A program made the position numbers and the translations under genes. A DNA stretch of 64,000 nt from an uncultured Eubacteriales bacterium (GTDB lineage Bacteria; Bacillota; Clostridia; Oscillospirales; CAG-382): contig URVJ01000012.1 in NCBI GenBank assembly GCA_900551295.1, positions 1,861 through 65,860 of the forward strand, in the 5' to 3' direction. Numbering within the stretch: the first letter of the stretch is position 1; every line of letters begins with the position of its first letter. Under the pieces are notes generated by a model. It was not told where the DNA came from, searched no databases, and saw nothing but the letters and a program-made list of their open reading frames with translations. This document shows positions 1,927-59,670 of the stretch, piece by piece.

Positions 1927-2025
1927 CGTTAAATCAAAACGACATCTGTATCATTTTTGCGGCTCTTTTCGGGAACCCGCAAACTATCAAACAAAAGGCA
2001 GCGGATCATATTCCGTTTTATGCTT

Positions 2026-2200
2026 TAGCGCCCGACCGCCGAAAAACAGTTCACGGCGGCGACGAGGAACAGGGTTATCGAATATTCGGCGGATGCCCTG
2101 ACGGCAGTGCGGTTACTGTCGGAAATTTCTGTTTCAAAAATCCGTATGACACTTCAAAAAAAGTGTTTTCGGCGCAACAAAGGCAGAAATACTTAACGGA
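2026..2200 (+). ncRNA. glmS ribozyme: glmS glucosamine-6-phosphate-activated ribozyme
   Basis: AGCGCC...GACGAGGAACAGGGTTATCGAATATTCGGCGGATGCCCTGACGGC...AACAAAGGCAGAAAT matches the conserved Bacillus glmS ribozyme core. It sits directly 5' of glmS. Confidence 0.9.
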
Positions 2201-4112: not shown

Positions 4113-4137
4113 TAGCTCTGATAAAGAACAAACTTCA

Positions 4138-4162
4138 GGCAGTCCGAAAGGACTGCCTTTTC
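4138..4162 (+). terminator. rho-independent terminator of glmS
   Basis: GGCAGTCC-GAAA-GGACTGCC followed by TTTTC. Confidence 0.85.
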
Positions 4163-4254
4163 ATATAAAAAAAGCACCGGCCAATTCGTTTCTTAAATGG
4201 TCAGTGCGATTTTAATTTATACGTATTTTTAAGTTTACACGAAAAAGCGCTGCG

Positions 4255-5625
4255 TTACATGGAAATCCAGCCGAAAGCGTTTGCTATTGAGCTGATGAGG
4301 ATAATTGCCGCGAAGAACGGGCACAAGAAACGTATCATGGCGTTGAAAATCTTTCTTCTGCGGAAAGCACAGCCGTTAAGAGTAACCTCCTCCGCAATGC
4401 GGTCTGTGCCGATCACACGGGAAACAAATATGCAGCTTGCAATAGCCGCAATGGGCATCATTACGGAGTTTGTCAGAAAATCAAAGAAGTCAAGGAACTG
4501 CATACCAAGAACGGTGACATTTGCCAAAGGCCCGTAGCCAAGGCTTGACAGACTTCCGAGTGCAACCATGGATATACCGATAACGACAGTAGACTTGTTT
4601 CGGCTCCAGTGTAATTCATCCTGCAATGTGGAAACGGCACTTTCGGTGAGCGCAATCGAGCTTGTCACTGCAGCAAACAGCACAAGCAAGAAGAACGCAA
4701 TGCCTATCACCGTGCCGAATCCCATTGAGTCGAATACTTTGGGAATGGTTATGAACATCAGCGAAGGGCCTGCTTTCAAAGCTTCGGGGTCGCCGCCCGA
4801 AAACGCAAACACCGCAGGAATAATCATAAGACCTGCCATAATTGCAATGGCAGTGTCAAAGATTTCGACGTTGCGTGTGGAATCCTCTATTGAAACATCT
4901 TTTTTCATATATGAGCCGAATGTGATGAGAATACCCATGGCAATGGACAGTGAATAGAACATCTGACCCATTGCGGAAACCACCGTCATCCACGAAAAGT
5001 TCTTGGGATTGGGCACAAGAAAGTATTTAACCCCCGCCATGGCTCCGGGACGGGTTACGGAGTAAATTCCGATTATCAGCGACAGCACTACCAGAATTGG
5101 CATCATAACCTTTGAAACACGTTCTATGCCGTTCTCAACGCCTGCAAAGATGACTGCAAGCGTCATCGCCGCAAAAATAAGAAAACAAAGTTCAGAGGAA
5201 AATCCGTCGGAAATAAATGCGGAAAAATATCCGTCCGCAGCGACTGCATGTCCTTTCCCAAACAGGTATTCGGCAAGATATTTTACGACCCAGCCGCCGA
5301 TTACCGAGTAATACGGTACTATAAGGATAGGAATTACCGCGTTGATCCAGCCGCCGAAACTGAGTGCGGGACGGTTTCCGAATGATTTATATGCTCCGAC
5401 CGGACTTTTTCCCGTCATACGTCCGATAGACGTCTCGGCAACGATCATGGTATATCCGAAAGTCATTGCAAGGATAATGTATATAAGCAGAAAAATTCCG
5501 CCGCCGTATTTTGCGGCAAGATAAGGAAAGCGCCAGATATTGCCAAGACCTACGGACGCGCCCGCAGCGGCAAGGACAAAGCCTATTTTACCGGAAAAAG
5601 AACCTCGCTTATGCTCGTGATTCAT
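4255..5625 (-). CDS. sodium-dependent transporter, neurotransmitter:sodium symporter (SNF/NSS) family
   Basis: GLGNIWRFPYLAAKYGGGIFLLIY signature near the N-terminus. The protein is polytopic and hydrophobic. Confidence 0.9.
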   Translation of the reverse strand: MNHEHKRGSFSGKIGFVLAAAGASVGLGNIWRFPYLAAKYGGGIFLLIYIILAMTFGYTMIVAETSIGRMTGKSPVGAYKSFGNRPALSFGGWINAVIPILIVPYYSVIGGWVVKYLAEYLFGKGHAVAADGYFSAFISDGFSSELCFLIFAAMTLAVIFAGVENGIERVSKVMMPILVVLSLIIGIYSVTRPGAMAGVKYFLVPNPKNFSWMTVVSAMGQMFYSLSIAMGILITFGSYMKKDVSIEDSTRNVEIFDTAIAIMAGLMIIPAVFAFSGGDPEALKAGPSLMFITIPKVFDSMGFGTVIGIAFFLLVLFAAVTSSIALTESAVSTLQDELHWSRNKSTVVIGISMVALGSLSSLGYGPLANVTVLGMQFLDFFDFLTNSVMMPIAAIASCIFVSRVIGTDRIAEEVTLNGCAFRRRKIFNAMIRFLCPFFAAIILISSIANAFGWISM

Positions 5626-25502: not shown

Positions 25503-25531
25503 TTGAAAATTGCAGCAGCCTATGATAAAAT
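25503..25531 (+). promoter_or_regulatory. sigma-A-like promoter of AraC-family gene (TTGAAA-17 nt-TAAAAT, TGa extended -10)
   Basis: TTGAAA at 25503-25508, a 17-nt spacer ending in TGA, and TAAAAT at 25526-25531. Confidence 0.6.
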
Positions 25532-25535
25532 ACTA

Positions 25536-25581
25536 ATGAATTGCCTGTCGGCATGAATTGAAATTTAAATTTCATGAATTG
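25536..25581 (+). promoter_or_regulatory. conserved leader/operator module, copy A (3 x ATGAATTG plus TGAAAT-TTAA-ATTTCA palindrome)
   Basis: ATGAATTGCCTGTCGGCATGAATTGAAATTTAAATTTCATGAATTG. A near-identical copy lies upstream of agrB (minus strand, 41471-41518). Confidence 0.7.
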
Positions 25582-25616
25582 CGCTATGCGTATGGCAAGT
25601 GTGAGGTAAAACAATC

Positions 25617-26417
25617 ATGATAAACAAAAACAGTTTTCCCGAGCAGAACAAATTCGGCATCTCTATCGAGGACAGCGGATATGCGCTCCTCGACAGCACA
25701 TGGTACAGGGAAAACGAATGCAGTCCGTTCTCAAGGCTGTATTTTATAAAGGGCGGGAGCGGATATTTAAAGAAAGACGGCAAAACAATACCGATAAAAG
25801 GCGGTTTTGTCTATCTCGTTCCGGCAGAATGTCAGTTCTCATACGGCTGCGAAAGTCTTGAAAAGCTCTACTTTCACATCTCGGTCTTAACGTCCGAAAA
25901 ATACGAGCTGCTTGCCGGAATAAAAGAAATATACTGTCTTCCGTTTTCGCAGCAAGAGTTTGACCGTCTTTACGAATGTTACTTTTCAGAGGACTACGCA
26001 CGCCTGCTTGAGCTAAAAAGCACGCTGTATTCGTCGGTATCCGAATTTCTTTCGCTTACGCATTTTTTCGGCGTTCCCATAAAAAGATATTCCGAGACCG
26101 TTGAAAAGGCTATGAAATACATTCAGCACAATCCGCTTATAAGCCTGCGCGCAAAGGACATTTCGGACGCGTTATTCATCTCCGAAAGCAAGCTGCGAAA
26201 AGCTTTCAAGGACGAGACAGGCACGGCTGTCGGCACTTACTCCGATACGATAGTATTCAACATGGCAAAAAGAATGCTTGTCGAAAACAGGCTTTCGGTA
26301 AAGGACATCAGCCGCGTCCTGGGATTCTGCGATCAGTTCTATTTTTCGCGCAGCTTTAAGTCGCGTTTCGGCAAAACTCCGCTGCAATACAGACGCGACA
26401 ACATACGTACCTTATGA
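25617..26417 (+). CDS. AraC-family transcriptional regulator (cupin-like sensor + HTH_AraC)
   Basis: C-terminal dual HTH (ISDALFISESKLRKAFK...ISRVLGFCDQFYFSRSFKSRFGKTPLQYR). GTGAGGT lies 9 nt upstream of the ATG. Confidence 0.9.
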   Translation: MINKNSFPEQNKFGISIEDSGYALLDSTWYRENECSPFSRLYFIKGGSGYLKKDGKTIPIKGGFVYLVPAECQFSYGCESLEKLYFHISVLTSEKYELLAGIKEIYCLPFSQQEFDRLYECYFSEDYARLLELKSTLYSSVSEFLSLTHFFGVPIKRYSETVEKAMKYIQHNPLISLRAKDISDALFISESKLRKAFKDETGTAVGTYSDTIVFNMAKRMLVENRLSVKDISRVLGFCDQFYFSRSFKSRFGKTPLQYRRDNIRTL

Positions 26418-40820: not shown

Positions 40821-41408
40821 CTAATTATTTTCGGCGCATTTTCCGTTATAGGCAATTCCCGCGTACATGAGTATTCCGTCGACAAACAGCGTAACGCACG
40901 CCGTTACGGCAAGTTCATAATCAAAATACACGCCTGTAAGCGCCGCAGCCGAAAGTATGCTGCTCCAGATAACAGCCCTTATGCGGTTGCTTTTCTTTTG
41001 CTTTTCGGTAAGCTTTTTATTGGGGTGCGCCACGGGTGCGAAAATTATCACCGTCACAATGCAGAAAATGCACATAAGCGCACACATCGGAAACACAAAA
41101 GCGCTTTTTGCGGCAAAGTACGAAACCGCAAGCACCGTACCGAAAGTTACAAGCATTGAGGTTCTGCACAGCGCAAAAGTTTTTGCGTGAAATCCGCCCG
41201 AATAGCGTCTTACCGTCCAGAGAAATGCAAGAAATACGACGGAATCAAAGAATCTTCCGAAAAGCGCGCCTATTATCCCTACCATTGCAAAATTTATAAT
41301 GTCGGCAAAAATAAGCTTAAATCCGTAGCTGTATATCTCGCGTTTTTCGTCAGGTATGCATTTTTTCTTTACGTAATAATCCGTTATTCCGTCTGCCAGT
41401 CTGTCCAT
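40821..41408 (-). CDS. agrB: AgrB-family accessory gene regulator protein B (AgrD-processing membrane peptidase-like)
   Basis: The RRYSGGFHAKTFALC motif has His and Cys 7 residues apart, as for the catalytic H77/C84 of S. aureus AgrB. About 6 TM segments and a typical N-terminus (ITDYYVKKKCIPDEKREIYSYGFKLIF). Start taken at MDRLADG. Confidence 0.8.
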   Translation of the reverse strand: MDRLADGITDYYVKKKCIPDEKREIYSYGFKLIFADIINFAMVGIIGALFGRFFDSVVFLAFLWTVRRYSGGFHAKTFALCRTSMLVTFGTVLAVSYFAAKSAFVFPMCALMCIFCIVTVIIFAPVAHPNKKLTEKQKKSNRIRAVIWSSILSAAALTGVYFDYELAVTACVTLFVDGILMYAGIAYNGKCAENN

Positions 41409-41470
41409 GTTTCCACCGCCGTGTGTAATAGTTATTATGCGCGAAGCGCATTTCATGTGCCCCTCGGACA

Positions 41471-59459: not shown

Positions 59460-59483
59460 GTATTCAAATTAATAAATCTTAAT

Positions 59484-59670
59484 CTTATCAAGAGCGGCTG
59501 AGGGAACAGGACCGAAGATGCCCGGCAACCTGTCTGAACAAAATTCGGACAAGGTGCTACTTCCTGCATGATATTCACGTTTTTGCAAAGCGCGGCGCGG
59601 TTATCATGAAAGATGAGAAGTAAACGACTTCTTCCCTGCTCTGATTTTTTCGGTGCAGGGTGTTTTTTTC
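59484..59670 (+). promoter_or_regulatory. SAM-I (S-box) riboswitch with terminator expression platform
   Basis: CTTATCAAGAGCGGCTGAGGGAACAGGACCGAAGATGCCCGGCAACC...AAGGTGCTACTTCCTGCA matches the S-box core. The terminator is CCCTGC...GCAGGG followed by TGTTTTTTT (59634-59669). Confidence 0.92.

Follow-up and report, generated by a model that had tools for sequence, protein, structure and literature searches.

Hairpin arrays in two gene leaders of an uncultured Clostridia genome are solo arms of a dispersed repeat

Introduction

Among described systems, the nearest to the element treated here is Gut-1 (RF01706), whose known occurrences were confined to human-gut sequences from uncultured organisms and which was judged to be an RNA on the basis of covariation by Weinberg et al. 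(Weinberg 2010, PMC2864571). It was classed as a free-standing small RNA (sRNA) and not as a cis-regulatory element, its function is unknown, and accounts of it do not describe a repeat nature, a bipartite architecture or a gene association (PMC2864571). This report concerns an array of short linkers and hairpins that occurs twice in a 64,000-nt stretch of DNA (the window) from an uncultured Eubacteriales bacterium of the Clostridia (assembly GCA_900551295.1, contig URVJ01000012.1, positions 1,861 to 65,860). Copy A lies on the plus strand upstream of a gene for an AraC-family regulator, and copy B lies 16 kb away on the minus strand upstream of agrB. An initial annotation had taken the two for a promoter/leader module that would place both genes in one regulon. 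Comparison with other genomes shows A and B to be solo forward arms, with three and four units, of a family of hairpin-array repeats that is dispersed among uncultured Clostridia of the gut and rumen.

Several better known systems share some of these properties. The REP/BIME sequences of enterobacteria, the BOX elements of pneumococcus and the Correia elements of Neisseria are short, intergenic, multi-copy and modular, and occur in both orientations; they are often co-transcribed with their neighbours, can alter mRNA stability or bring promoters, and conserve the palindrome or module sequence itself. Type III toxin-antitoxin loci of the ToxIN-like kind consist of near-identical repeats of 34 to 45 nt, a terminator and a gene for a ToxN/AbiQ-type endoribonuclease. 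RNase III excises the flanking stems of 23S rRNA intervening sequences, and the sites preferred by RNase Y are AU-rich, single-stranded and close to stem-loops. Intervening sequences of 23S rRNA that hold open reading frames (ORFs) of the PF05635 family are described in a passage of PMC4990558 as selfish elements, for example in Coxiella.

The two arrays in the window

Both copies were found where the initial annotation had put them, A on the plus strand and B on the minus strand, each between a strong promoter and a gene. Their extent had been drawn too narrowly, and the likeness of the two runs beyond the earlier limits: hairpin 3 of A (TGCGC-TAT-GCGTA) resembles hairpin 4 of B (ATGCGC-TTC-GCGCAT), and B holds one unit more than A (GTGTCC-GAG-GGGCAC). 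The parts of the two arrays, as read from the sequence, are the following.

25535-25592, plus strand: array copy A, a solo forward arm of three units
25535-43, 25552-60 and 25573-81, plus strand: linkers of copy A
25542-53 (TGCC/GGCA), 25559-74 (TGAAAT/ATTTCA) and 25580-92 (TGCGC/GCGTA), plus strand: hairpins of copy A
41518-41437, minus strand: array copy B, a solo forward arm of four units
41518-10, 41500-492, 41479-71 (CATGAAAAG) and 41457-49 (CATGAAATG), minus strand: linkers of copy B
41511-499, 41493-78, 41471-57 and 41451-37, minus strand: hairpins of copy B

The unit combines a linker, (C)ATGAATTG, with a short hairpin after it; the hairpin has a stem of 4 to 7 bp and a loop of 3 to 4 nt, and its first two stem pairs (U-A and G-C) are formed by the UG of one linker with the CA of the next. 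Hairpin 3 of copy A holds a G.U pair. Upstream of each array stands an extended -10 promoter, and downstream of it a ribosome-binding site (RBS): the first linker begins 4 nt (A) or 11 nt (B) downstream of the promoter, and the Shine-Dalgarno sequence follows 10 to 30 nt past the array's end. Two successive linkers are 21 nt apart in each copy.

Within the window the arrays stand alone, and their likeness to each other goes well beyond chance. The linker motif CATGAATTG occurs exactly three times against 0.73 expected, and for the 30-nt core of the copies 0.00 matches are expected by chance. A covariance model (R1) trained on 42 arms, both window copies among them, found only copies A (69.1 bits, E=4e-15) and B (59.5 bits, E=1e-12, units 1-3) over the 64 kb. 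The next best match (E=1.3) is a weak one of 11.2 bits at 4116-4190 on the minus strand (AACGAATT ... ATGAAAAGGCAGTC ... GACTGCC), which could be a decayed unit or chance.

At gathering score the arrays match no Rfam family, and only two other RNAs in the window reach threshold.

2016-2170, plus strand: glmS ribozyme (Rfam, 71.8 bits)
59482-59619, plus strand: SAM-I riboswitch (Rfam, 68.9 bits)

A dispersed repeat family

An exact-pattern scan for three linkers with free spacers, covering one genome per species and expected by our own estimate to yield about 10 chance matches, returned at least 120 stretches, nearly all of them in metagenome-assembled genomes (MAGs) of gut or rumen Clostridia. 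Nearly all the matches listed carry the labels Clostridia, Oscillospiraceae, Acutalibacteraceae, Christensenellales, Faecousia or Scatosoma; the few from outside the Clostridia that were inspected proved to be plain tandem repeats or coding sequence. When the window's own subfamily was scanned for separately, 28 metagenome loci came up; the window species is itself seen solely in metagenome assemblies. The element adjoins dozens of unrelated genes at more than 100 MAG loci, in every intergenic orientation, and AraC genes stand downstream of only 2 of about 150 arrays. This distribution does not support the earlier proposal of a regulon of the AraC gene and agrB, or of an operator for the AraC protein.

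With F standing for ATGAATTG and R for CAATTCAT, and with linkers clustered on both strands, the canonical element has some four F units and, after them, some four R units, the linkers of the inverted arm being CAATTCATG. Among the matches listed, 55 of 73 composites are purely F-then-R, and the opposite order, R-then-F, is seen in only 4. Between the F and R arms the hairpins are unrelated, and the linkers alone are complementary. Dialects of the linker occur within the same architecture, each accompanied by a matching inverted linker: TCGATATG in L109 (about 4960-5050, minus strand, downstream of a CATGAATTG element) and CATGAAATG in L016, L041, L051 and L102.

The family behaves like a repeat that proliferates and whose units are gained and lost at the linkers. 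Three near-identical copies of about 290 nt with unrelated flanks are present in one MAG, and in L143 the F arm is duplicated, with one copy on each side of a gene. One locus, recognisable by its identical flanks and lying before a YfbR-like gene of the HD-domain type, has four units in one assembly (L149:4314-4400) and three in another (L153:6103-6045); the former is also, among the matches listed, the closest outside relative of copy B, with 85% identity over 93 nt. F-only arms between an extended -10 and an RBS, as in the window, occur in L149, L153 and L156 as well, and the arrays of L141 and of the second arm in L143 directly adjoin the RBS, with no extended -10 seen.

Pairing and covariation in the hairpins

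Linkers and hairpins differ sharply in what is conserved. Among the matches listed there are 543 inter-linker spacers, 389 of them distinct, and 446 (82%) form at least four anchored Watson-Crick pairs, against 8% when their interiors are shuffled. Spacer loops are mostly 3 to 4 nt, and the distance between linkers ranges over 16 to 23 nt, inside single arrays as well as from one array to another. When 42 arms from the window's subfamily were aligned, the share of cells that pair was 96.6%, compared with 27 to 50% for slid partners; two-sided changes occur in 6 pairs (32 cells), and the covariation score of 0.140, against 0.068, was reached in 0 of 500 shuffles. Such a pattern shows a fixed linker and hairpins that are free in sequence and preserved in pairing by selection. 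The paired stem differences between A and B that the initial annotation had singled out are real, and they are one instance of a compensatory variation that runs through the family; its view that the small palindromes are selected for pairing holds.

Comparison with described systems

The arrays resemble Gut-1 in kind. Both have short hairpins with covarying, variable stems and a conserved purine-rich UGAA linker (GUGAAAU in the Gut-1 consensus); Gut-1 seed sequences run on into an inverted array (GUGAUAUU ... AAUAUCAC); three or more hairpins with a single-stranded UGAA linker are present in our arrays too; and the habitat agrees, array matches coming from MAGs of gut or rumen Clostridia. The linker itself differs, being CAUGAAUUG in the window family and GUGAAAU or GUGAUAUU in Gut-1. 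A full-length relative (L058) aligned end to end with the Gut-1 model at 24.8 bits (E=0.006), where the gathering score is 50, and 18 related loci gave no Rfam match at gathering. The Gut-1 model did not match copies A and B even at E<=10. Judged by the curated threshold, the window copies thus fall outside Gut-1, and they are best placed as the same kind of element with another linker. The initial annotation had not recognised the motif as a described one, which holds for the window copies as judged by the Gut-1 model and not for their architecture. The literature that was searched yielded no paper on CATGAATTG arrays or on a link of such arrays to PF05635, only Weinberg 2010 and a review of diversity-generating retroelements (DGRs).

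Unlike REP/BIME, BOX and Correia elements, the present family conserves only a 9-nt linker and every hairpin differs. The spacers, with 389 distinct among 543, do not have the uniform palindromes of REP/BIME, and a RAYT-like gene was not noticed beside the elements, whole genomes not having been searched.

Two operator systems were considered for the CATGAATTG repeats and rejected. An operator of the LytTR/AgrA type does not fit repeats that are located downstream of the -10 and spaced variably. Autoregulation by the AraC protein does not fit either, with arrays preceding many unrelated genes and missing from the nearest homologues of the AraC gene (51-58% identity).

History of the two loci

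Both promoters are shown by comparison with relatives to be older than the arrays, which were gained or expanded recently by exchange at linkers, because the sister species and other relatives hold the promoters without arrays. The features around copy A are these.

25503-25531, plus strand: promoter A, -35 TTGAAA at 25503-25508, 17-nt spacer, TG and -10 TAAAAT at 25523-25531
25603-25619, plus strand: RBS (GAGG, 25603-06) and start codon (ATG, 25617) of the AraC-family gene
25617-26417, plus strand: AraC-family regulator gene (Pfam HTH_18/HTH_AraC)

Promoter A has 10 of 12 consensus matches plus the TG in a consensus scan. The AraC gene is followed by a gene for a 175-aa protein and one for a SpoIID-domain protein (Pfam SpoIID). 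In two relatives (L171, L172) the order cysS ... rimO on the minus strand, then the 175-aa gene and SpoIID on the plus strand, is kept, and the AraC gene and the array are both missing; a TTGAAA and an extended -10 stand at the position equivalent to promoter A. Promoter A is thus probably an older host promoter outside the repeat, and the AraC-family gene is a lineage-specific insertion between rimO and the 175-aa and SpoIID genes, because the locus is otherwise syntenic in L171 and L172 without it. The nearest AraC homologues are paralogue-like and not syntenic, and no array lies upstream of them. Copy A is unchanged in 8 of 10 strains, and one of the remaining two has two changes, at 25580 and 25583. 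Two sister-species contigs with the AraC gene (L169, L170) both end at the gene's 5' end, which would be consistent with the assembly having broken at a repeat.

The agrB locus has these features.

41600-41563, minus strand: direct repeat pair TTTGTGTTAGTTGTGCC with a 21-nt period, outside the repeat array and abutting the agrB -35
41558-41529, minus strand: promoter B, weak -35 GCGACA at 41558-53, 18-nt spacer, TG and TATAAT at 41537-29 (consensus scan)
40821-41408, minus strand: agrB, 195 aa from the ATG at 41408 (Pfam AgrB match from residue 6 onwards, E=8e-37)

In the sister species (L163), where AgrB is 86% identical and the ppk/ppx neighbours are the same, an alignment of the agrB upstream regions shows the two direct repeats, the -35, the extended -10 and the RBS in common. 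What the sister species lacks is a clean 62-nt block that equals units 1-3 of copy B; it retains 'ATAAACAG-CGCGTTGCG-CAT', a single degenerate unit that is the counterpart of unit 4. More distant loci of the order agrA-agrC-agrB-agrD have LytTR-like repeats and an extended -10, and the array is absent. Copy B is kept in 7 strains, and at one stem position of its hairpin 3 the strains carry the alleles U.G, C-G and U-A, all of which pair; pairing is thus kept through a wobble on the sense strand.

The initial annotation had counted the promoter as part of the module, a view not supported by the sister agrB promoter, which lacks units 1-3, or by the equivalent promoter at the rimO/SpoIID locus, which lacks the array. 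The likeness of promoters A and B is for the most part that of consensus -10 sequences, and the repeat proper begins at the first linker. A portable promoter carried by the element is likewise rejected for the window copies, given the array-less promoters of the sister species and relatives. A subfamily found elsewhere, with the hairpin AGTTTGC-AAA-GCAAACT, always lies downstream of an extended -10. The earlier suggestion that copies missing elsewhere and from orthologous promoters would indicate a recent local duplication is borne out in one half only: the orthologous promoter is array-less and yet copies abound elsewhere, so the element is a dispersed repeat; it is not a conserved operator, nor did it arise by a single local duplication.

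The direct repeats upstream of the agrB -35 are a separate matter. They are conserved in the sister species, analogous pairs occur upstream of agrB in L165 and L167, and their layout (two direct repeats of about 21-nt period upstream of the -35) is that of LytTR/AgrA sites, so that they are likely an activator site of the LytTR/AgrA type and a candidate for Agr autoregulation. The agrB gene of the window is solitary, flanked by a P-type ATPase gene and by ppk/ppx; agrC and agrA are not adjacent, and there is no obvious agrD. The sole candidate for agrD downstream is a 27-codon ORF (MNALNIKYKTGFFPVIFCLIFLCYAPL) that runs into a terminator near 40750-40670, and in L165 and L167 an ORF of 53 to 56 aa immediately follows agrB.

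Gene callers mostly start agrB at 41456, with an ATG inside linker 4, to give 211 aa, and members of the AgrB cluster have 211, 196 or 195 aa. Both the match to Pfam AgrB and the sister species favour a start at the ATG of 41408. ATGs in linkers can thus yield false N-terminal extensions.

Association with PF05635 genes

PF05635/TIGR02436 is the family of small four-helix-bundle proteins to which the DGR protein Avd and the ORFs of 23S rRNA intervening sequences belong. About 986 kb of retrieved DNA holds 20 such genes, and in 18 of them an array lies no more than 150 nt, and mostly no more than 20 nt, from the 5' end of the gene (L100, L093, L104, L114, L124, L043, L045, L098, L106, L111, L115, L095, L038, L102, L136, L139, L143 and L158). 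In five species synteny extends over a rumA-like gene, the array and the PF05635 gene, in that order, and at this locus the linkers are invariant and the hairpins altered in a compensatory manner. At two loci (L095:1697-2307 and L038:1480-852) the PF05635 ORF is enclosed by forward and inverted arms, whose inner segments are complementary (CATTAAGG/CCTTAATG in L095, GTAATGTTTTG/CAAAACATTAC in L038); at most PF05635 loci the ORF lies past both arms.

Enclosure of the ORF by arms with complementary linkers in L095 and L038 recalls the 23S rRNA intervening sequences. The arrays differ from them in lying outside rRNA and in having arms made of hairpin arrays and not of one long stem, and the window copies have neither an ORF nor a second arm. 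With type III toxin-antitoxin loci the PF05635-linked loci share a promoter, a tandem RNA repeat array and a gene for a small protein, and differ in their units of 17 to 23 nt, variable hairpins and four-helix-bundle protein. An array of that type was rejected for the window on unit size and on the downstream genes, which encode an AraC regulator and AgrB.

The PF05635 protein is the best candidate for a partner of the arrays. A solved homologue, 2RLD (E = 1e-26), was deposited with five chains, and this count is what suggests a pentamer. A further proposal, and an unlikely one, is that the arrays, that is Gut-1 and the variants CATGAATTG, CATGAAATG, GTGATATT and TCGATATG, are the RNA partners of free-standing PF05635 proteins, or else that array and gene form a selfish element. 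In the first form the protein would bind, in its own leader, the repeated units of linker and hairpin, for autoregulation or as a ribonucleoprotein; solo arms in other leaders, such as those of the AraC operon and agrB, would be bound too, and a post-transcriptional regulon would be extended through propagation of the repeat. In the second, array and protein gene would be a new selfish element akin to the rRNA intervening sequences.

Proposed role and alternative explanations

The reading that we favour, with a probability of roughly 0.65 for the whole, is that the two arms are forward arms of a dispersed repeat that act as a generic RNA leader module. Our confidence attaches to the identity and history of the arrays; the mechanism, taken by itself, is a tentative proposal that we hold to be possible rather than probable. 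The arm would be transcribed as the first 60 to 85 nt of the AraC-operon and agrB mRNAs, as the promoter consensus suggests, and would fold into separate mini-hairpins between which linkers of the UGAAU type stay single-stranded and exposed. Such a portable RNA leader could offer a multivalent binding platform to one family-specific factor; alternatively or in addition, the leader arm may determine the stability or processing of the 5' end. A role as RNA is favoured because a short conserved element lies between hairpins, spacing is free and polymorphism preserves pairing, and because Gut-1 was judged an RNA on its covariation by Weinberg et al.

A number of observations weigh against an RNA leader or at least do not favour one. 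Among the matches listed, 60 arrays are in tandem, 24 in convergent and 19 in divergent intergenic settings; solo arms show no preference for a co-oriented downstream gene (19 vs 23); and an extended -10 stands just upstream of only about 10% of arms. The occupation of all intergenic configurations and the lack of bias among solo arms mean that the family overall is not an element of 5' untranslated regions. Internal mismatches of the stems, compared for a sign of which strand folds, are 6 G:T against 15 A:C in linker orientation, with no excess of G.U. Neither window copy is predicted to be unusually stable (z = -0.39, not significant, for A and z = -2.15 for B). Long-range pairing of F with R linkers in full elements is predicted by folding and unproven, because compensation between the arms is not register-specific (19 in register vs 18 shifted). 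Finally, the window holds no PF05635 gene, and the link between arrays and this family is one of co-location alone.

The foremost competitor, on balance unlikely, takes the same view of the arrays' identity as the RNA leader module and differs only on RNA activity. Here the arrays would be DNA repeats of the MITE, REP or BIME kind, selfish or neutral, with arms that form the ends of an element spread by mobility or recombination. The repeat would be tolerated in both leaders with no host function, its hairpins being kept for a propagation step on DNA or single-stranded DNA or by templated correction within a strand. Near-identical copies at unrelated sites of one genome, the occupation of every intergenic orientation, the strand-symmetric forward/inverted architecture and stem mismatches without G.U excess are what such a repeat would leave behind, as are the polymorphic unit number, the recent gain relative to the sister species, and the arms of L095 and L038, which flank an ORF in the manner of transposon ends. 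Of the features of a MITE, inverted arms and near-identical copies are present, and a target-site duplication was not evident at the borders of L011, L024 and L060; no autonomous partner is known, and no transposase or RAYT-type gene was noticed beside the elements, whose flanking ORFs were inspected and not systematically annotated. The palindromes are not conserved in sequence, in contrast to REP. Further points against it are the synteny of rumA, array and PF05635 gene in five species with invariant linkers and compensatory hairpins, and the retention of copy B in 7 strains with alleles that preserve pairing.

An improbable alternative makes the array a cassette for RNA processing or decay, in which AU-rich, single-stranded UG/AAU linkers beside the hairpins would be entry sites of the RNase Y/E type that set mRNA half-life, and the paired F and R linkers of full elements would be substrates of RNase III, with no dedicated binding protein. 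The full element is indeed predicted by RNAfold to form a long branched rod with F and R linkers paired (-63.3 kcal/mol, z = -5.1), and PF05635 ORFs occur in intervening sequences of precursor 23S rRNA (a passage of PMC4990558). Against it stand the arms, which lack register-specific covariation, and the window copies, which lack the inverted arm.

A duplex-DNA operator, with the CATGAATTG repeats or the palindromes bound by the AraC protein or an Agr-type regulator in one regulon, is very improbable: the 21-nt step between successive linkers in each copy (two helical turns), a site just downstream of the -10 that would suit a repressor, and the regulatory nature of both the AraC gene and agrB speak for it, but linker spacing varies, self-complementarity is conserved where sequence is not (a property that a protein binding duplex would not select), the downstream genes are dozens of unrelated ones with AraC genes hardly among them, the nearest AraC homologues have no array upstream, in the sister species the agrB promoter shares its -35, its -10 and the upstream repeats and lacks units 1-3, and the LytTR-like repeats sit upstream of the agrB -35.

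Conclusions

For annotation, two cautions follow: the shared module is no evidence for control of agrB by the AraC protein, and an ATG in a linker misleads gene callers on the start of agrB. The value of these observations lies more in the breadth of the family, the rapid turnover of arrays in leaders and the PF05635 association than in the two window copies. Gut-1 has been in Rfam since 2010 as an orphan motif without host organism or function. Its relatives are now placed in MAG lineages of the Oscillospiraceae, Acutalibacteraceae, Christensenellales and their relatives, where they appear as modular, bipartite, multi-copy repeats with fast turnover in gene leaders and not as single sRNA genes, and their tight linkage to PF05635, an equally orphan family, leads to hypotheses that can be tested.

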